From: Escherichia phage vB_EcoM-pEK20
Strand: one strand, 5' to 3'
DNA: 64,000 bases
Sequence record: MZ868638.1
Below are positions 45,045 to 52,870 of the stretch, one piece after another. The notes under the pieces were generated by a model, which did not search any database, was not told where the DNA came from, and saw only the letters and a list, made by a program, of their open reading frames with translations. Each line of letters starts with the position of its first letter. Positions within the stretch are counted from its first letter, which is position 1. Position numbers and translations under genes: made by a program.

Positions 45045-45680
45045 ATGAAAACTACTCCTATTACTATCGCTATTGACGCAATCATAAAACAAGCTTCTTC
45101 TTTGGCCGCTATGGCCAAAGTAATTAGTCAAAACCCTGCTCGTTATAATGCTATTCTAGAAACTCTTCGACGCCCGGGACTTAGTAATTATGAAAGTCGT
45201 GTAATTATTACAGGTGTGGGTAAGAATGCTAATATTGCAACTAAAGCTTCTGAGACATTTGCTTCACTTGGTATCCCGAGTATGTACTTGAACACCGGGC
45301 ATTATTCTCACGGTGATGCAGGATTCATTGCGCCTAATGATGTGTTGATTCATATTAGTCGTTCTGGTAAAACTGAAGAAATGATAGGCGTGGCTAAGCA
45401 TCTTAAAATGATTCGTCCGAACGTCAAACAGATTCTGTTGCATTGTAACCCAGACATTCCACAAGAAAATGAAGCCCTTTTTGATTACTCTTTCTGTACA
45501 GGCATCGCAGTAGAGGTTGATGAGAATTCTCTGGCTCCGACTATGTCCACTACATTGTTGTTAGCGCTTATCGATACGTTTGCTATCAACCTTTCGTCTG
45601 AACGTGGATTTACCTCTAATGACTTCCTTAAGTTCCACCCTGGCGGTGCACTAGGTGCCATGTTACGAGGCGAACAATGA
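45045..45680 (+). CDS. SIS-domain sugar-phosphate isomerase (arabinose-5-phosphate isomerase-like, no CBS domains)
   Basis: SIS motifs VIITGVGKNANIATKA, LIHISRSGKTEE and KpsF/KdsD-type FHPGGALG. Confidence 0.75.
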   Translation: MKTTPITIAIDAIIKQASSLAAMAKVISQNPARYNAILETLRRPGLSNYESRVIITGVGKNANIATKASETFASLGIPSMYLNTGHYSHGDAGFIAPNDVLIHISRSGKTEEMIGVAKHLKMIRPNVKQILLHCNPDIPQENEALFDYSFCTGIAVEVDENSLAPTMSTTLLLALIDTFAINLSSERGFTSNDFLKFHPGGALGAMLRGEQ

Positions 45681-45861: not shown

Positions 45862-47550
45862 ATGAAAAAAGCTGTTATTCTTGGTGCTGGACTGGCAACT
45901 CGTTTGTATCCAATAACGCATCATATTCCTAAGGTGCTTGTTAACTATAAACAAGACACTATTCTGAGCAATTTGTATACAATTTATTCTGACCTTGGCG
46001 CAGATGAAATTATTGTAGTAGTTCATTCAAAATTTGCTGAAACTGTTCGAGCTTATTGTGAGCAAGAAGGGTTCAATGTGACTATTCGTACAGTTGATGA
46101 AGCGTATGGTTCCGCTTATGCTCTTGCTAAATTACACAAAGATTTAGACGGCCATAATGTAATTGTTAACTGGTGTGATATTATTCCCGATTTTGGTTCA
46201 TGGTCTTGGAATGTTAACGCAATCTATGTTAAGGGCGACGAATGTCGTTATAATTTCGACGGTGAAAATATCACTAACGTAGGTTCAACAGGTGGTAATG
46301 TTGTAGGAATTTATCAGTTCAAAGACTGGGAATTCTATATGGGTTCTACTGATGAGGAAATTCATGAATACTGCAAAGGACGTGATTTCGTAGAATTCCT
46401 TTACGGCAGCGCATTCAATAAATCAGAGCTTATGAATATCATCGACCTTGGTGATATGCCTAAACTTGAAAAAGCTCATGAAGTTCGTGAACTTAATCGT
46501 AGTTTTAATGCAGTTGAAATTGGCGAAGAAACGGTAACAAAGATTGCTTTAACAGAACAGGGCGTTGCACTTCAAAAAGATGAAGTCAATTGGTATAAGA
46601 AAGTTAAATCAGATTCAGTTCCACGGATTGTAAGTTATCATCCTGGCGGCCACTTTATTATGGAACGCATTAAAGGTAAGCCAGCATTTGAATATATTAA
46701 ATCCAAATCGAGTCTTGCTCGTCCACAAATTGTTGATGCAATTTTAGACGCACTGAAATTCAGCACAGACACTTATTTTGTAAGTCCTGAAACTGTTCGT
46801 CGTGATTTCACTAAAGAATTCTATACGAAAGTTATTGATCGTTGTGAAAGTATTCAACCATTGATTGATTCATTTGGTAAAATCACACATGTGAACTACA
46901 CTAAGATTGGGCGTCTGAAGCCAATGCTGAAACAAGCTTTAGAACACCTTATTCGTTATCATAACCGTTCTCAGGGACAGTACTCTGTTATTCATGGTGA
47001 CCCGAACTTCAGTAATACTATGATTACTGATAATGGTGAAGTCAAGTTTATCGACCCTCGTGGATATTTTGGTGAAACCAAGATTTATGGGCCAAAATTG
47101 TATGATGAAGCTAAAGTGCTTTATGCTGTTTCAGGTTATGATGAATTCAACGCTAATCCGACCTGGGGTCAGTTTACTATTGATGAAACAACTTGTAATG
47201 TGACTATTAACATCAATCCATTAGTTTACAAATATGGAAAGATGAGTTCGTTTAATGAGTATCATCATTTGGCTGTAGCAATTATCTGGATTGCATTAGG
47301 TGGTTATTTCAAGAATAATCCACTTAAAGCGGTAGCCGCATATTATAAAGGTATGGAACTTCTGACTAAGCAATTACGTAACATGGGCCGTGTACTTCAG
47401 GACGGCACTATTAGTTATGATGTAGCAGAACCTGTAACGGCTACTCTGATTACAAAAAATCCTGGTAAATGGGTACTAACTGATAAAGAAACTGGTGTTT
47501 CTTATCGTCCAATCGGTGGCGATATCACTCATCAATGGGAACGAATCTAA
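45862..47550 (+). CDS. bifunctional sugar-1-phosphate nucleotidyltransferase / anomeric sugar kinase
   Basis: N-terminal GAGLATRLYPIT (RmlA/GlmU-type NT); C-terminal HGDPNFSNTMI...IDPRG (APH/choline-kinase-type kinase). Confidence 0.7.
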   Translation: MKKAVILGAGLATRLYPITHHIPKVLVNYKQDTILSNLYTIYSDLGADEIIVVVHSKFAETVRAYCEQEGFNVTIRTVDEAYGSAYALAKLHKDLDGHNVIVNWCDIIPDFGSWSWNVNAIYVKGDECRYNFDGENITNVGSTGGNVVGIYQFKDWEFYMGSTDEEIHEYCKGRDFVEFLYGSAFNKSELMNIIDLGDMPKLEKAHEVRELNRSFNAVEIGEETVTKIALTEQGVALQKDEVNWYKKVKSDSVPRIVSYHPGGHFIMERIKGKPAFEYIKSKSSLARPQIVDAILDALKFSTDTYFVSPETVRRDFTKEFYTKVIDRCESIQPLIDSFGKITHVNYTKIGRLKPMLKQALEHLIRYHNRSQGQYSVIHGDPNFSNTMITDNGEVKFIDPRGYFGETKIYGPKLYDEAKVLYAVSGYDEFNANPTWGQFTIDETTCNVTININPLVYKYGKMSSFNEYHHLAVAIIWIALGGYFKNNPLKAVAAYYKGMELLTKQLRNMGRVLQDGTISYDVAEPVTATLITKNPGKWVLTDKETGVSYRPIGGDITHQWERI

Positions 47551-47936
47551 TGCACCGTGTAGAAAACATGCTTAATCTTTGTTTTGATGTCGATGATTGT
47601 ATAACAGAGTGGAATAACAACCGTGATTACGTGAACTTCAAACCAGACGTCGAAATGGTGACTGCCATTAATGCCCTGTACGATGCAGGGCATACCATAA
47701 CGCTTTACACTGCTCGCGGTATGAAGTCAGTCGGTCCTGGTCGTATAGCAATTGACATTCTCCCAAGTCTGATTCAGAACTTGGCAAACATTGGATTGAA
47801 GTACCATAATTTGCTAACACATAAACCAGTATATGATTGGATTATCGACGACAAAGCTATGCGTCCTGACGAATTCAAAGCTCTTATGAATAAAGGCGAA
47901 TTCGAAACATTTAAATCGTATAAACCGAATCTATAA
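47550..47936 (+). CDS. HAD-superfamily phosphatase
   Basis: motif I LCFDVDDCIT at N-terminus; ATG overlapping upstream stop. Confidence 0.6.
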   Translation: MHRVENMLNLCFDVDDCITEWNNNRDYVNFKPDVEMVTAINALYDAGHTITLYTARGMKSVGPGRIAIDILPSLIQNLANIGLKYHNLLTHKPVYDWIIDDKAMRPDEFKALMNKGEFETFKSYKPNL

Positions 47937-47992
47937 TAATTTAAGTAAGACCTGCAAAAACCATCGCGTCAATTAACGTGAGATGCAAAAAA

Positions 47993-49153
47993 ATGAATAC
48001 TTTTAAAATCGGAACGAATTTTGATTTAGCTCTTCTTGATAAAATCGTAGAGCTCAATAAAACTTATCCTAATAGCTTGATAAACGAAGTATACGGCTCT
48101 ACAAGAGAAATGGCTTTTGTAGCAGCCAGACCTGATTTTAGGCTTCCTGACGTTGACAAAAAGATGTTAGAAGATTACGTTAAACGTTGTAACGAATTAG
48201 GTATTTGCTTTAACTATACACTCAACACGATAAATCCTGGTTCAAAAAGAGAACTAGTTGAGTGGAAGAAGAAAGCTATTCAGGATTATGTTCAGTATCT
48301 TTGGTCAATAGGCGTATGGCGTATTACTATCGCTAACCCTGTTGTTATGGAAATTGTTCGTGAAGTCAATAAAGACATTGAGATTGAAGTTTCAACAATT
48401 CTACATGTCGATGCTGTAACTCAAATCAAATACTTGCATGACCAGTATAATATCAAAAAGGTCTGCTGTGGAATTCATAAGAACCGTTCGGTTTCTTTCC
48501 TGAAGCGTGCAGCAGAGTTTTGCAATAAGAACAATATAATATTTGAAGTTCTTGTAAATGAGTTCTGTTCTAATGCTGGTAAAGGGTATACAACACATTG
48601 TAGCTATCGTGACTCTTGCTATATTTTCCATAGTACTGATGTTACCGCTGATGATGCTAAATCCTTAAATGGATATCCAATGCAACACTGCATTAAAGCT
48701 CGTGATACAGATCCATTTAACTGGTTGAGAACTCGTTTTGTTCGTCCTCAAGATTTGAAACTTTATAATGATATTGGTATCACTCAATTCAAAGTTTCAG
48801 GACGTACAGGTAGCACAGACTACATTTTGAAAGTTCTTGAAGCTTATGCTTCCGAAAAATTTGAAGGTAATTTGTTGGAATTGTGGAAGCCTTTAGAGAC
48901 CATTTTCACTCTTGAAAATGAGACCGAGTTTTCACATACGGTAAATATTGAAACCTCTTTGTTAGATGGCTTTTTAGAAAAAAGGTGGTTCAGACATCCA
49001 GATTTCGATTGTGCTAATGAAATCTGTGGGACGACGTGTACATATTGTGAAAGATATTATAAACGTCAATTATCTAAAAATGGGTTATCAGAAAACTCTA
49101 TATCTATTATTGATATAACTAACTCTGACGACGCTTTGAGGTACCCAGAATGA
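47993..49153 (+). CDS. peptidase-U32-family-like protein (putative Fe-S/radical enzyme), function unknown
   Basis: LGICFNYTLNT, NEFCSNAGKGYTTHC and FKVSGRTGSTDYILKVLEAY resemble U32 family motifs; C-terminal Cys cluster CGTTCTYC. Confidence 0.4.
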   Translation: MNTFKIGTNFDLALLDKIVELNKTYPNSLINEVYGSTREMAFVAARPDFRLPDVDKKMLEDYVKRCNELGICFNYTLNTINPGSKRELVEWKKKAIQDYVQYLWSIGVWRITIANPVVMEIVREVNKDIEIEVSTILHVDAVTQIKYLHDQYNIKKVCCGIHKNRSVSFLKRAAEFCNKNNIIFEVLVNEFCSNAGKGYTTHCSYRDSCYIFHSTDVTADDAKSLNGYPMQHCIKARDTDPFNWLRTRFVRPQDLKLYNDIGITQFKVSGRTGSTDYILKVLEAYASEKFEGNLLELWKPLETIFTLENETEFSHTVNIETSLLDGFLEKRWFRHPDFDCANEICGTTCTYCERYYKRQLSKNGLSENSISIIDITNSDDALRYPE

Positions 49154-49432: not shown

Positions 49433-50149
49433 ATGGGAAAACATAACACAATGAAATATATTAAAGCCGCAGATTTTCAATCCGCATTTAAAGCTGTCAA
49501 TCGTGAAATTTTAGAAAACCCGGAATTCGTAACTGATTCTCGTATTGGACGTTGTAATGAAATTGGGTCTATGACAGTAGTTGTTGACACTCCATCATCA
49601 TTCAAAATGACCGACCCACGTATTAACCGCATCTCTTATGAATATGCTGAAGACTTCTGGAAGTTTATGGTTTCTGGTGGTACTGATGCAGAAGAAGCAT
49701 TTAAGGCATATCCTAACGTTGCTAAATTTATTTCTAAACCTAAATCAGACGCTTTGCCTGCAAACTTCAACACTTTCTACGGTCCACGAATTGCGGCCCA
49801 ATTACCAGCTCTTTTAAAAGAACTTAAAGAGAAGCCTAACTCTCGAAGAGTTGTGTTTCAAATTCTTGAAAGTTCTGATCAGGCTTTGCTTGATTCGGAC
49901 GAAACGCTTGAATATCCATGTACTGACTCAGTGACTTATTATATTCGTGATGGTAAGCTTTATACCCACTGCCATATGCGTTCTCAGAACTGTGCTGTTG
50001 TTATGCAGTTGGATTTTTATCTCCAAGGAAAATTACTTCATTATATCGCTAACGAATGTGGTGTAGAAGTTGGTGATTATACTCATACCATGGTAAGTGC
50101 CCATGTGTTTGAACGTGATTTTGATTATGTTAAAGGATTCCTTGACTAA
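49433..50149 (+). CDS. 42: dCMP hydroxymethylase
   Basis: thymidylate-synthase-like motifs PNSRRVVFQI and TDSVTYYIRDGKLYTHCHMRSQN parallel T4 gp42. Confidence 0.9.
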   Translation: MGKHNTMKYIKAADFQSAFKAVNREILENPEFVTDSRIGRCNEIGSMTVVVDTPSSFKMTDPRINRISYEYAEDFWKFMVSGGTDAEEAFKAYPNVAKFISKPKSDALPANFNTFYGPRIAAQLPALLKELKEKPNSRRVVFQILESSDQALLDSDETLEYPCTDSVTYYIRDGKLYTHCHMRSQNCAVVMQLDFYLQGKLLHYIANECGVEVGDYTHTMVSAHVFERDFDYVKGFLD

Positions 50150-51048
50150 TGGCTATTTTCCGCGTACCTATCTTGAGTATGCGGTCTTATGAAACTGGAC
50201 AGTATGCTATCCTTAAGGATGGCAACTTCCAACTTCATTTGCACCGTGCTAATCCAGGTGATGTGATTACATATCCACGTAATGCATCTGATATTAAAGA
50301 ATGTGAACGTCTTTTCCCAGAATTTAAGTTTGTTCCATTATGGTATAAAGATAACGCGTATAACACTCGTAAATATTTCTGGTCTGAAAATGAATTTGTG
50401 GTTGATTCATTAATTGCTTATTATGATTGTGATTTTCTAATAACAGATATCACTGGATATGATGGTGCTTTTGATGTAGAATTCAATTTCAATATCACCG
50501 CAGACCCTAATAAACCGCGTTTTTATATTGACGAATTCTTAAAAACCGACATGTTGTCGGTTAATCGTTCACTTCAAACTACTGTGTTGAATGAACGTCA
50601 AAAGGAAGTGCTGGTTAACGCTGGTGCGGATGGTAATAAGATTATCGTAACGCAGAAAGTTATACGTCCTTCCATCATGCAGCGTCTTGTAGGTGATTTG
50701 GCTCCTATTCATCTAGATGGTATTTTTCATCCATTTCGAATTAGTGACCCGTGCTATCGTTTTGAACAAGTGGTTGAATGTGCAATTCAATTAGGCCAAC
50801 CGCTTTATATAACCGATCCAAATAATAGCTTCGACAGAAATAAGTATCCTGAAGAAGCGCTGATTCGAATTTTTAAACCAACTAAAACCGAGTACTATCA
50901 AATTCTTAAAGGACGTCCAAAGATTCAATATTTCGAAAATCCTGAAGAAGTATTCCATCCAGGTCTTGGTGAGTTCATCTACTTTAATGCTTTAATTTCT
51001 TCGCCGTATAATATACCTAAATACGAAGATGTCGTAATCGAGGAATAA
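50149..51048 (+). CDS. hypothetical protein in the beta-glucosyltransferase slot (candidate hmC glycosyltransferase)
   Basis: 299-aa ORF between 42 and uvsX; no similarity to T4 Bgt noted; assignment by synteny only. Confidence 0.3.
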   Translation: MAIFRVPILSMRSYETGQYAILKDGNFQLHLHRANPGDVITYPRNASDIKECERLFPEFKFVPLWYKDNAYNTRKYFWSENEFVVDSLIAYYDCDFLITDITGYDGAFDVEFNFNITADPNKPRFYIDEFLKTDMLSVNRSLQTTVLNERQKEVLVNAGADGNKIIVTQKVIRPSIMQRLVGDLAPIHLDGIFHPFRISDPCYRFEQVVECAIQLGQPLYITDPNNSFDRNKYPEEALIRIFKPTKTEYYQILKGRPKIQYFENPEEVFHPGLGEFIYFNALISSPYNIPKYEDVVIEE

Positions 51049-51049
51049 A

Positions 51050-51598
51050 ATGGCTAAAATTATTTTAGTAGATGGCCCGGATAATGCTGGTAAAACAACT
51101 TTCATTAATGACATAATGGAAATTAGTGAAAGATATGTAAAGATTGATTTCCCTAAACGAACGGTTGATGGACGTTTCGATGTTAAGTCTCGAAATGAAG
51201 TTGGCTGTTTCGAAACGATGCTGAATTATTTAGACCCTACTAAGATTTATCTGTTAGATCGTGGATATATTAGTAACTGGGTTTACGGACGTATTCGACA
51301 AGATGCGGACTCGGTTCTTGACGTTTATGAACAGGATTATGTTCGTCTTTGCCAAAACCATGATGTGTTCACAATTATTTTAACACGTAACGAAATGACT
51401 GAAAGTTTTGAAGACGACCTTATTACTTTGTCTTCATTCGGTTTTAATACAGTAATTTCATATTTTGAAGAGTTTGCAATCCATAACGAAATCCAAACGT
51501 ATCAATTACTTAATCATGATGGTGCTAACAAAGTTATAGGATTTAATGCAAGCGAACGTAATAATTTGATTACAGAAATTATCAAATGGGCTCGTTAA
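51050..51598 (+). CDS. P-loop kinase-like protein
   Basis: Walker A VDGPDNAGKTT; LLDRGY resembles nucleotide-kinase DRx motif. Confidence 0.5.
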   Translation: MAKIILVDGPDNAGKTTFINDIMEISERYVKIDFPKRTVDGRFDVKSRNEVGCFETMLNYLDPTKIYLLDRGYISNWVYGRIRQDADSVLDVYEQDYVRLCQNHDVFTIILTRNEMTESFEDDLITLSSFGFNTVISYFEEFAIHNEIQTYQLLNHDGANKVIGFNASERNNLITEIIKWAR

Positions 51599-51619
51599 GA
51601 GCCTGTTTAAAGTTTTAAA

Positions 51620-51644
51620 TGCTGTATAACCCTTAGTATATAAT
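51620..51644 (+). promoter_or_regulatory. middle promoter upstream of uvsX
   Basis: TGCTGTA 51620-51626, 12-nt spacer, tataat 51639-51644. Confidence 0.5.
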
Positions 51645-51697: not shown

Positions 51698-52870
51698 ATG
51701 TCTGATTTAAAATCTCGTCTGATTAAAGCTTCTACTTCTAAAATGACTGCAGACTTGACTAAGTCTAAGTTGTTTAATAATCGCGATGAAGTCCCTACTC
51801 GTATTCCGATGTTGAATATTGCATTAGGTGGTGCACTGAATGCTGGGTTGCAATCAGGCTTAACTATTTTTGCTGCTCCTTCTAAACACTTTAAAACGTT
51901 GTTTGGACTGACCATGGTTGCAGCATATATGAAGAAATATAAAGATGCAATTTGTTTGTTCTATGATTCAGAATTTGGTGCTTCAGAATCTTATTTTCGT
52001 TCGATGGGTGTTGATTTAGACCGTGTAGTTCATACTCCGATTCAATCTGTCGAACAACTTAAAGTTGATATGACTAATCAGCTTGACGCGATTGAACGCG
52101 GTGATAAAGTTATTATCTTTATCGATTCAATTGGTAATACTGCATCTAAGAAAGAAACCGAAGATGCGTTGAACGAGAAAGTTGTAGGTGATATGTCTCG
52201 TGCTAAGGCACTTAAATCTCTGTTCCGCATTGTGACTCCTTATCTGACTATTAAAGATATTCCGTGTGTTGCAATCAACCATACAGCAATGGAAATTGGC
52301 GGACTATATCCTAAAGAGATTATGGGTGGTGGTACAGGTATTCTTTACTCTGCTAACACTGTATTCTTTATCTCTAAACGTCAGGTTAAAGAAGGTACAG
52401 AATTGACCGGTTATGACTTCACGTTGAAAGCAGAAAAATCTCGTACAGTTAAAGAGAAATCTACTTTCCCAATCACAGTCAATTTCGATGGCGGTATCGA
52501 CCCATTCAGTGGCTTGTTAGAAATGGCAACTGAAATTGGTTTTGTAGTTAAGCCTAAAGCCGGGTGGTATGCTCGAGAATTCCTTGACGAAGAAACAGGC
52601 GAAATGATTCGTGAAGAGAAATCATGGCGTGCTAAAGCTACTGATTGTGTAGAATTCTGGGGACCGTTGTTTAAACACAAACCTTTCCGAGATGCAATTG
52701 AAACTAAATATAAACTAGGTGCTATCTCTTCTATTAAAGAAGTCGATGACGCTGTTAACGACCTTATTAATTGCAAAGCAACAACTAAAGTTCCGGTTAA
52801 AACTTCTGATGCTCCGTCTGCAGCAGATATAGAAAACGACCTTGACGAAATGGAAGATTTCGATGAATAA
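51698..52870 (+). CDS. uvsX: recombinase UvsX (RecA-like)
   Basis: 390 aa; RecA-fold motifs; matches T4 UvsX. Confidence 0.95.
   Translation: MSDLKSRLIKASTSKMTADLTKSKLFNNRDEVPTRIPMLNIALGGALNAGLQSGLTIFAAPSKHFKTLFGLTMVAAYMKKYKDAICLFYDSEFGASESYFRSMGVDLDRVVHTPIQSVEQLKVDMTNQLDAIERGDKVIIFIDSIGNTASKKETEDALNEKVVGDMSRAKALKSLFRIVTPYLTIKDIPCVAINHTAMEIGGLYPKEIMGGGTGILYSANTVFFISKRQVKEGTELTGYDFTLKAEKSRTVKEKSTFPITVNFDGGIDPFSGLLEMATEIGFVVKPKAGWYAREFLDEETGEMIREEKSWRAKATDCVEFWGPLFKHKPFRDAIETKYKLGAISSIKEVDDAVNDLINCKATTKVPVKTSDAPSAADIENDLDEMEDFDE

Follow-up and report, generated by a model that had tools for sequence, protein, structure and literature searches.

A predicted arabinosyltransferase and a linked thymidylate-kinase-fold protein in the cytosine-arabinosylation cluster of Escherichia phage vB_EcoM-pEK20

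Arabinosylated 5-hydroxycytosine guards the DNA of many T4-like phages against restriction enzymes, DNA glycosylases and some CRISPR systems, in hosts that include Escherichia, Klebsiella, Serratia, Acinetobacter and others, and complicates both the sequencing and the engineering of this DNA. In the T4 record, the genes in the corresponding part of the genome run 42, β-gt, segA and uvsX. T4 β-GT is a GT-B enzyme and glycosylates a C5-oxygenated cytosine. In the arabinosylation pathway, a ThyA homologue makes 5-hydroxy-dCMP (5hodCMP) from dCMP with flavin and O2, and UDP-arabinofuranose (UDP-Araf) is made by a module encoded upstream, for which the activity of the HY126 homologue of the AfhE-type protein has been reported (Lee 2026). 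Two transferases are distinguished, one predicted to add the first, base-proximal arabinose and another, of the RB69 ORF003c type, assigned to the second, beta-linked arabinose (Lee 2026). The orthologues RB69 gp46:47, DLP3 gp79 and Thanatos TH1_063 carry the prediction 'arabinosyltransferase 1'.

Here we analyse a 64,000-nucleotide stretch of the genome of Escherichia phage vB_EcoM-pEK20 (MZ868638.1), hereafter the window. A first-pass annotation made from the sequence had placed two unknown genes in the β-glucosyltransferase slot between gene 42 and uvsX, and had proposed that the first encodes the transferase for a sugar on hydroxymethylcytosine (hmC) and the second a kinase. The slot is indeed that of β-gt in T4, and the locus and both proteins have already been described, by prediction, as part of the cytosine-arabinosylation pathway. 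The region is thus a known cluster, and its framing in terms of hmC and gene 42 needs correction.

Gene arrangement and the modified base

Both open reading frames lie exactly where the first-pass annotation put them (Table 1). They are genuine genes and not chance ORFs, because the 299-aa protein has homologues in many phages, both proteins give confident structure models, the ORFs on the opposite strand are short (no more than 55 aa in the ORF list) and an Rfam scan of the region gave no match. Candidate sites in a scan for sigma-70 promoters and terminators were no more numerous than in shuffled sequence. The stop codon of the upstream 238-aa gene overlaps the start of the transferase gene (TAATG, 50147-50151), and a GAGGA Shine-Dalgarno-like sequence lies within the 3′ end of the transferase gene, whose TAA stop (51046-51048) is followed by the kinase ATG at 51050. 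Transferase and kinase genes are tightly coupled here; across related loci the two usually overlap by 4-26 nt, with the kinase starting inside the end of the transferase gene. They are the second and third members of a conserved core of three genes, for 5-hydroxy-dCMP synthase, glycosyltransferase and kinase.

Table 1. Features of the arabinosylation cluster in the window
Feature	Coordinates	Strand	Evidence or remark
Arabinose-5-phosphate isomerase (SIS domain), first sugar-donor step	45045..45680	+	NCBIfam KpsF/GutQ E 2e-32, KdsD E 7e-31; literature
562-aa bifunctional protein (AfhE type), sugar kinase plus sugar-1-phosphate nucleotidyltransferase, for UDP-arabinofuranose synthesis	45862..47550	+	Pfam NTP_transferase E 1e-9, weak APH-like kinase matches, NCBIfam
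133-aa HAD-type sugar-phosphate phosphatase (AfhF type)	47535..47936	+	NCBIfam capsule biosynthesis phosphatase E 4.6e-13; literature
391-aa U32-family protein (RB69 gp50)	47978..49153	+	Pfam Peptidase_U32 E 7.5e-11
238-aa thymidylate-synthase homologue, predicted 5-hydroxy-dCMP synthase	49433..50149	+	Pfam Thymidylat_synt E 2e-15
299-aa GT-B fold glycosyltransferase	50149..51048	+	ATG start
Transferase/kinase junction	51040..51052	+	Sequence read directly
182-aa thymidylate-kinase-fold P-loop kinase (RB69 gp45)	51050..51598	+	ATG start
uvsX, downstream of both genes	51698..52870		T4_UVSX_C E 1e-38

The gene that precedes the transferase had been taken for gene 42. It is a counterpart of that gene in position and superfamily only: its product is 24% identical to T4 gp42, reads MRSQN where T4 gp42 has MRSND, and represents a different enzyme. 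The mark of a dCMP hydroxymethylase, an aspartate aligned with D169 of E. coli ThyA, is present in T4 gp42, but the window protein has an asparagine there and an aspartate at the position of ThyA N177. Asparagine at the D169 position is diagnostic for 5hodCMP synthases (Lee 2026), and 235 of the 238 residues are identical to those of the structurally solved HY126 5-hydroxy-dCMP synthase (PDB 9iqc/9ir2). Judged by its sequence, the 238-aa protein is a flavin- and O2-dependent 5-hydroxy-dCMP synthase and not a dCMP hydroxymethylase, and the near-identity and the diagnostic asparagine together identify the base as 5-hydroxycytosine, not hmC. A search of the window for a flavodoxin-like gene found none. 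The transferase gene lies directly downstream of a synthase with the D169N signature in the window and in 34 of 44 non-redundant loci. Among the other genes upstream, the U32-family protein has 10 invariant cysteines in addition to E195, and its co-occurrence pattern was examined across loci.

Fold, family and predicted role of the 299-residue protein

The confident structure model of the 299-residue protein contains two Rossmann-like β/α/β domains with a cleft between them, and fold comparison places it in the GT-B class, the same broad class as T4 β-GT, whose slot between a ThyA-family gene and uvsX it occupies. For the placement of this family only fold comparison was informative. Searches of Pfam (E ≤ 0.1) and NCBIfam gave no match, including to Glycos_transf_1 and Glyco_trans_4, and a profile search of PDB sequences returned nothing. 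The lack of visible similarity to Bgt noted in the first-pass annotation was borne out by hhalign (probability 0.09% against T4 β-GT), and the family profile likewise has no similarity to the other two DNA glycosyltransferases compared, T4 α-GT and RB69 ORF003c. The last of these, represented in HY126 by a 366-aa glycosyltransferase (PDB 9iqz), belongs to a separate family with a basic N-terminal domain and is encoded between rIIA and gene 39, outside the window. A transferase that maps elsewhere, which the first-pass annotation had named as evidence against its proposal, therefore does exist, but it is the one assigned to the second arabinose and not the first.

Compared with retaining GT4-type GT-B enzymes (sucrose-phosphate synthase 6kih, BshA, PimA and WaaG) and T4 α-GT, the protein shows 7-12% identity and is 60-100 residues shorter. 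It carries E267-X7-E275, reminiscent of the E-X7-E motif of the GT4 C-terminal domain, but its family keeps only the HPG..E275 part and, unlike in GT4-type enzymes, the position of the first glutamate varies. An exhaustive profile search with the family recovered 226 representative clusters and did not merge into cellular glycosyltransferase families; homologues were found by tblastn in 348 phage records, and at least 138 clusters are present in a 5.8-billion protein set.

No substantive difference separates the protein from RB69 gp46:47, DLP3 gp79 and Thanatos TH1_063, and it matches their group, PHROG 3891, with E 3e-156. The region is 98.1% identical in nucleotide sequence to that of RB69, with 18 substitutions and one indel in the 900 nt of the gene. 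The indel is an extra T at nucleotide 545 that splits the RB69 reference gene, while the window copy is intact. We rejected the annotation of RB69 ORF047c/046c as two real genes, which reflects this single-base difference, as there is one ORF in all other genomes.

With respect to function, the GT-B fold, the sugar-nucleotide module of the cluster and the literature prediction all support the first-pass proposal that the protein is a sugar transferase, but the acceptor proposed there, hmC, does not stand. We suggest a compact GT-B transferase of the retaining type, which would transfer the first, alpha-linked arabinofuranose from UDP-Araf to the 5-hydroxyl of cytosine. No enzymatic activity of either this protein or the adjacent kinase is reported in the accessible literature. 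Purified single DLP3 transferases, including gp79, did not arabinosylate 5hoC-DNA with either UDP-Araf or UDP-Arap, a result given as 'data not shown', and two DLP3 transferases work only together (Lee 2026). The one assayed orthologue, the 48%-identical Thanatos TH1_063, reportedly formed UDP-xylose when given UTP and xylose-1-phosphate but left DNA, dCMP, dCTP and cytosine unglycosylated; 5-hydroxy substrates were outside this assay. These activities fit a different role, in which the 299-residue protein forms a sugar nucleotide, as a UDP-pentose pyrophosphorylase or a phosphorylase-like GT-B enzyme, and addition of the first sugar falls to a different transferase, for example of the ORF003c type. 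Fusions of a HAD sugar phosphatase to the glycosyltransferase, which also tie the family to sugar-phosphate metabolism, are in keeping with such a role, which we nevertheless regard as highly improbable. Leaving aside the order in which the two proteins act, their identities and roles as arabinosyltransferase and deoxynucleoside-monophosphate kinase appear very likely.

The linked P-loop kinase

The first-pass description of the 182-residue protein as P-loop kinase-like proved accurate. Its confident structure model has the overall fold of thymidylate kinase, and its P-loop, G9-P-D-N-A-G-K15-T16, is invariant in 23 sequences and aligns with GLEGAGKTT of E. coli Tmk. The pair D70-R71, aligned to DRH of E. 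coli Tmk, is also invariant in this 23-sequence alignment of the window-type clade, while the third residue of the motif is G in the window and F in a metagenomic clade. With its P-loop intact, the protein is probably catalytic. Of the two kinds of substrate that had been proposed, a nucleotide or a sugar, a deoxynucleotide is the one favoured by fold and motifs; the cluster has its sugar kinase in the 562-aa protein encoded upstream, as the C-terminal half. Similarity to Tmk is low (~15% identity) and the protein is 20-30 residues shorter. It did not match Pfam PF02223 and scored 15.6 bits against TIGR00041, for which the cut-off is 83; its only strong match was to PHROG 761, 'thymidylate kinase', a label it bears in many records. 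Searches against PDB sequences with the single sequence and with a profile gave weak P-loop or chance matches only. Like the T4 gene 1 dNMP kinase (RB69 gp159), it is a phage P-loop kinase of a modified-cytosine pathway, though comparison with T4 gp1 did not reveal the corresponding fold and sequence similarity.

Unlike Tmk, the kinase is always found inside a cytosine-modification cluster and is sometimes fused to the glycosyltransferase. It adjoins or overlaps the glycosyltransferase gene in 32 of the 44 loci, and abuts it in loci that have no ThyA homologue (L053, L054, L056 and L058). Fusions of glycosyltransferase and kinase exist in both orientations; their P-loop domain was linked to the window kinase by profile-profile comparison, while a plain HMM search gave no link with one weak exception. 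In one clade the kinase is two or three genes away from the glycosyltransferase, and minimal metagenomic modules include the kinase. This gene context makes a modified dC nucleotide, rather than dTMP, the expected substrate. We propose a deoxynucleoside-monophosphate kinase with the fold of thymidylate kinase, which would phosphorylate such a nucleotide with ATP and whose product could then be used by host NDP kinase and phage polymerase.

Two other roles were considered. The protein might be an ordinary or redundant dTMP or 5hodCMP kinase, inherited from an ancestral mobile module, that duplicates the gene 1 kinase in T4-like phages and acts independently of the glycosyltransferase. Its fold, motifs and database label, its separation from the glycosyltransferase in one clade and its presence in the minimal modules, as in a self-contained cassette with a kinase of its own, are consistent with this. 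Fusion to the glycosyltransferase in both orders, retention beside it in loci without a ThyA homologue, scores below the Pfam and TIGR thresholds for dTMP kinases and the many residues that are invariant among members of ~45% identity, which argue for a selected, specific function, weigh against it, and we consider it unlikely. Alternatively, the kinase could act on the polymer as a DNA-base kinase, on a sugar as an arabinose kinase, or as a non-catalytic partner that the transferase needs. Thymidine hypermodification offers known examples of P-loop kinases that phosphorylate hydroxymethyl-uracil within DNA, and the fusions, the inactivity of single transferases in vitro and the mutual requirement of two DLP3 transferases could be read in the same way. 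The final base, on the other hand, has no reported phosphate, phosphorylation of the 5-hydroxyl would be expected to block O-glycosylation rather than help it, the invariant DR motif is of the acceptor-side type found in dNMP kinases, the P-loop is intact and the AfhE-type protein already supplies a sugar kinase. Any of these latter functions seems very doubtful.

Order of phosphorylation and sugar transfer

In the published working model, the kinase uses 5hodCMP as its substrate, and sugar transfer follows at the level of DNA. We give this order about an even chance. The reverse order, somewhat less probable in our assessment, is pre-replicative: the glycosyltransferase would arabinosylate free 5hodCMP, the kinase would then phosphorylate the arabinosylated nucleotide, the polymerase would incorporate a dCTP that carries its first sugar, and the second alone would be added on DNA. 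On this reading, arabinosyl-5-hydroxy-dCMP would be too bulky for a dNMP kinase of the gene 1 type, hence the enzyme with a thymidylate-kinase fold.

Several features of the locus favour this reverse order. The gene order of ThyA homologue, glycosyltransferase and kinase would be the order of the reactions, and the kinase follows the glycosyltransferase, not the hydroxylase, as judged from its adjacency, the ThyA-less loci and the fusions. Conversely, adjacency is weak evidence, given that T4 β-gt also lies beside gene 42 and yet encodes an enzyme that works on DNA; the HAD phosphatase fusions indicate that fused enzymes need not act one after the other; and one clade has moved the kinase away. 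A second 5hodCMP kinase looks redundant beside RB69 gp159, which converts 5hodCMP to 5hodCDP (Lee 2026), yet it is kept across many genera. Expression of gp48 and gp159, on the other hand, led to 5hodCTP being made and incorporated (Lee 2026), which speaks against the reverse order.

The properties of the transferase itself are also relevant. In addition to its lack of sequence similarity to the three DNA glycosyltransferases, its family is acidic (median pI 5.15; N-terminal domain 4.9), unlike T4 β-GT (9.05) and the N-terminal domain of RB69 ORF003c (8.55). Since T4 α-GT is mildly acidic too, calculated charge is suggestive only as a sign of whether the protein binds DNA. The negative in vitro result would also suit a transferase that acts on nucleotides, although its status as data not shown reduces its weight. 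To our knowledge, there is no precedent for phage incorporation of a glycosylated dNTP, and all characterised phage DNA glycosylations are post-replicative.

If the reverse order were true, it would be, as far as we know, the first DNA sugar modification installed before replication, and it would explain both the linkage and fusion of the kinase to the glycosyltransferase and the resistance of the first transferase to reconstitution on DNA. The first sugar transfer is the sole step of the pathway for which the accessible literature reports no activity. Establishing whether it takes place on DNA or on the nucleotide, together with the role of the linked kinase, would complete the pathway, would make it possible to reconstruct the modification in vitro or in other phages, and would settle whether pre-glycosylated nucleotides can be polymerised by phages.

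Gene order and the upstream 5-hydroxy-dCMP synthase

The 299-aa and 182-aa ORFs are co-directional and lie exactly where the first-pass annotation had placed them. As read from the sequence, the start of the 299-aa ORF overlaps the stop codon of its 5′ neighbour (TAATG), and the 182-aa ORF starts one base past the 299-aa stop codon with a GAGGA motif ahead of it. Base composition across the region is unremarkable, the opposite strand carries short ORFs only and an RNA family scan of the region gave no match. The gap before uvsX contains AAATGCTGTA, then 12 nt, then TATAAT, which upstream of uvsX resembles a middle (MotA-dependent) promoter of the T4 type, with one mismatch to the T4 consensus TGCTT(T/C)A; this candidate was not among the sites listed by a generic sigma-70 scan. 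The T4 record has the order 43 - imm.1 - imm - 42 - b-gt - segA - uvsX - 40 - 41, so b-gt does occupy the equivalent slot between 42 and uvsX, as had been noted.

The 5′ neighbour had been taken for gene 42 and the presumed acceptor for hmC, and both assignments are wrong. The neighbour encodes a 238-aa protein with 24% identity to T4 gp42 that is identical at 235 of 238 positions to a solved enzyme (PDB 9iqc/9ir2), which we infer to be that of phage HY126 from the HY126 crystal structure mentioned by Lee et al. Where E. coli ThyA has D169 the protein carries Asn, as against Asp in T4 gp42, and where ThyA has N177 it carries Asp. The D169N change is diagnostic of enzymes that make 5-hydroxy-dCMP (5hodCMP), which RB69 gp48 produces from dCMP, O2 and flavin (Lee et al., 2026). 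RB69 DNA contains mono- and di-arabinosylated 5-hydroxycytosine (5hoC), whose sugar is joined directly to C5 through an ether bond; an assignment as arabinosyl-hmC (Thomas et al., 2018) has since been revised. In several phage records the neighbouring 5hodCMP synthase is named 'dCMP hydroxymethylase', and some UniRef entries in the cluster of the 299-aa protein name the transferase 'RNA polymerase binding protein'; both names appear to be annotation errors that might spread to further records.

At the DNA level the region shares 98% identity with Escherichia phage RB69 and many other Mosigvirus genomes, among them JS09 and HY126. The RB69 reference splits the 299-aa gene into ORF047c and ORF046c; the 182-aa gene corresponds to ORF045c, which RefSeq calls 'thymidylate kinase'. 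Direct alignment traces the split to a single extra T (CTTGTAG-T-GTGATT) at ~7294 of RB69 NC_004928, corresponding to window position 50693 and gene nucleotide 545. The transferase is one intact ORF in the window, HY126 and all other homologs, in agreement with the statement that the split is a sequencing error (Lee et al., 2026). The 562-aa sugar-activation gene, too, is in two parts in RB69 (ORF053c/052c) but intact in the window. It belongs with the upstream UDP-arabinofuranose genes, which literature and family matches identify as encoding an arabinose-5-phosphate isomerase, a bifunctional AfhE-type kinase/uridylyltransferase and an AfhF-type phosphatase. RB69 gp46:47 is a predicted 'arabinosyltransferase 1' and gp45 a 'nucleotide kinase' (Lee et al., 2026), and the structural matches for both proteins here are the same as in that study. 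The first-pass interpretation is supported in part: the transferase fold and, of the substrates suggested for the kinase, a nucleotide are right at the level of prediction, whereas the acceptor base and the identity of the 5′ neighbour are not. Both genes have already been reported in 2025-26 papers on near-identical phages, and as such the finding is not new.

Coordinates of features in the window and in compared loci (L) and proteins (P)
Feature	Location	Strand	Remark
U32-family gene (RB69 gp50)	47978..49153	+	
238-aa thymidylate-synthase-family gene	49433..50149	+	5′ neighbour of 299-aa ORF
299-aa ORF	50149..51048	+	co-directional with 182-aa ORF
182-aa ORF	51050..51598	+	co-directional with 299-aa ORF
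Candidate middle promoter	51618..51644	+	kinase-uvsX gap
uvsX	51698..52870		3′ of kinase; then gene 40 and gene 41 homologs
U32 observation loci	window, L053, L054, L056, L058, L063, L067, L068, L069		
Transferase/kinase fusion loci	L067:5412-7064, L068:7001-8662		
HAD phosphatase-transferase fusions	P0167, P0176, P0178, P0179, P0191, P0196, P0230, P0250; L052:6452-8107		
Flavodoxin_2-family gene	L004:6739-7293, L005:6715-7275, L003:2-523		9/44 non-redundant loci
dCMP deaminase gene	L068:6555-7004, L069:57-506		

The predicted transferase family and its linked kinase

Pfam and NCBIfam searches with the 299-aa protein gave no match; it belongs to PHROG 3891, to which no function is attached, and its homologs form at least 138 clusters, which come without exception from phages or metagenomes and contain no Pfam domain. 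When 1.84 billion representatives were searched exhaustively with a profile, only 226 clusters matched, and the family is therefore small and self-contained, not merging into cellular glycosyltransferase families. The AlphaFold2 model (51-sequence alignment) is very confident (pLDDT 95.3, pTM 0.89), and the fold check that had been proposed was positive, with a predicted glycosyltransferase fold of the GT-B type. Profile comparison with T4 b-GT, T4 a-GT and RB69 ORF003c revealed no relationship at the sequence-profile level, and the reported lack of similarity to Bgt thus holds for sequence. That the predicted structure prefers retaining-type relatives is in keeping with reports that the arabinose nearest the base in RB69 DNA is alpha-linked.

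We compared 58 related loci taken from viral contigs, plus six taken from assemblies of metagenomes and sequencing runs, and scored them using profiles of the window's own proteins; counts refer to the 44 non-redundant loci with both flanks. The ThyA homolog is present in 38 and directly adjoins the transferase in 34, and the Asn signature occurs in 52 of 54 linked ThyA homologs (redundant set). The kinase is a separate ORF in 38 loci, directly adjoining the transferase in 32, where it usually overlaps the transferase 3′ end by 4-26 nt, and is fused to it in two; in one Enterobacterales phage clade it lies between the phosphatase and the U32 or ThyA gene. In a metagenomic clade the module is reduced to a flavodoxin-like gene, ThyA homolog, transferase and kinase; sugar-activation genes are absent for 7 kb around it, and its kinase matches the window kinase family (E 1e-27 to 1e-30). 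The Flavodoxin_2-family (flavin reductase-like) gene of this clade lies directly 5′ of the 5hodCMP-synthase homolog, which makes sense for a flavin-dependent hydroxylase; the window has none.

Exhaustive searching recovered transferase-kinase fusions in both orders, kinase first in P0258 and transferase first in P0253, P0256, P0263, P0269, P0278, P0286 and P0239. Along its entire length the fused P-loop domain shows homology to the window kinase family (hhalign probability 97%, E 7e-11), and the fusion clusters contain a SIS isomerase, an AfhE-like enzyme, a HAD phosphatase and U32, with no ThyA homolog. It is the thymidylate-kinase-fold enzyme, and not gp159 (the RB69 T4 gene-1-type kinase), that travels with the transferase, even in loci without a ThyA homolog. 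In a second fusion class the transferase domain is preceded at its N-terminus by a KdsC-like HAD phosphatase (DFDG...GDD.YD), which matches the L003 phosphatase at phmmer E 7e-22 to 6e-11. In L068 and L069 the kinase-transferase fusion comes directly after a dCMP deaminase gene and is followed by a HAD-like gene and U32, which hints that such phages may glycosylate 5-hydroxyuracil and not a cytosine derivative.

The U32-family gene

The window also encodes a U32-'peptidase'-family protein, listed for RB69 gp50 only as 'sugar or heterocycle reductase' (Lee et al., 2026). U32 lies beside the transferase/kinase in 6/6 non-redundant loci that lack a ThyA homolog and never co-occurs with the flavodoxin-like gene (19 and 9 of the 44 loci, respectively); most Enterobacterales phage loci have it, but none of the Acinetobacter or Pseudomonas phage loci does. 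Its conservation far exceeds that of the transferase (E 1e-109 to 1e-148), and it has E195 and ten invariant Cys, including C345-X4-C-X3-C-X2-C357. In RNA, cytidine and uridine are hydroxylated at C5 (ho5C, ho5U) by an O2-independent, prephenate-dependent route that requires the U32-family proteins RlhA and TrhP, in which an E...C...C motif is essential; the ThyA-type 5hodCMP synthase requires O2 (Lee et al., 2026). On the strength of this distribution, the conserved residues, the RlhA/TrhP role and the O2 requirement, it is a reasonable hypothesis that phage U32 may provide an anaerobic (O2-independent) route to the 5-hydroxypyrimidine, a link made by no paper in the library searched.

The first acceptor and the role of the kinase

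In the published proposal the first arabinose is attached by gp46:47, the second by gp3 (ORF003c) (Lee et al., 2026). We placed the gp3 gene between rIIA and gene 39, outside the window; as to the reservation that the transferase might map elsewhere in the genome, a further transferase does, but it is the one assigned to the second sugar. The accessible literature reports no activity for either the 299-aa or the 182-aa protein, and a June 2026 paper still treats both transferases as putative and the pathway as incompletely characterised. Thanatos TH1_063, an ortholog 48% identical to the 299-aa protein, reportedly makes UDP-xylose from UTP and xylose-1-phosphate and did not glycosylate DNA, dCMP or dCTP, substrates that included no 5-hydroxy acceptor. 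Readings in which the transferase is a sugar-nucleotide-forming enzyme, or the kinase acts only as a partner or on a polymer or sugar, are together improbable.

In the canonical order the kinase would act on 5hodCMP and the transferase on DNA, and we give this order roughly an even chance. RB69 gp159 turns 5hodCMP into 5hodCDP, and gp159 and gp48 suffice for 5hoC incorporation into E. coli DNA (Lee et al., 2026), so the kinase step of this route is already covered. Somewhat less probably, the first sugar would be placed on 5hodCMP and the linked kinase would then phosphorylate the arabinosyl nucleotide. The linkage of a thymidylate-kinase-fold enzyme to the transferase, sometimes as one polypeptide, although gp159 covers 5hodCMP, fits such an order, as does the gene order hydroxylase, transferase, kinase; however, T4 b-gt also adjoins gene 42, yet b-GT acts on DNA, and the HAD fusions show that two enzymes can be fused without acting in successive steps. 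DLP3 transferases, the ortholog among them, failed to arabinosylate 5hoC-DNA when tried singly, which fits a nucleotide acceptor, but this in vitro result is an unpublished detail, and by the authors' own account their data leave mononucleotide and DNA undistinguished as first acceptor (Lee et al., 2026). The transferase family is acidic (median pI 5.15, N-terminal domain 4.9, whereas T4 b-GT has 9.05 and the ORF003c N-domain 8.55) and has no sequence kinship to the DNA glycosyltransferases compared, both consistent with transfer to a nucleotide, although T4 a-GT is also mildly acidic. To our knowledge there is no precedent for pre-replicative glycosylation, which weighs against it. The linkage and fusion data sharpen the question of which acceptor receives the first sugar and what the kinase does.
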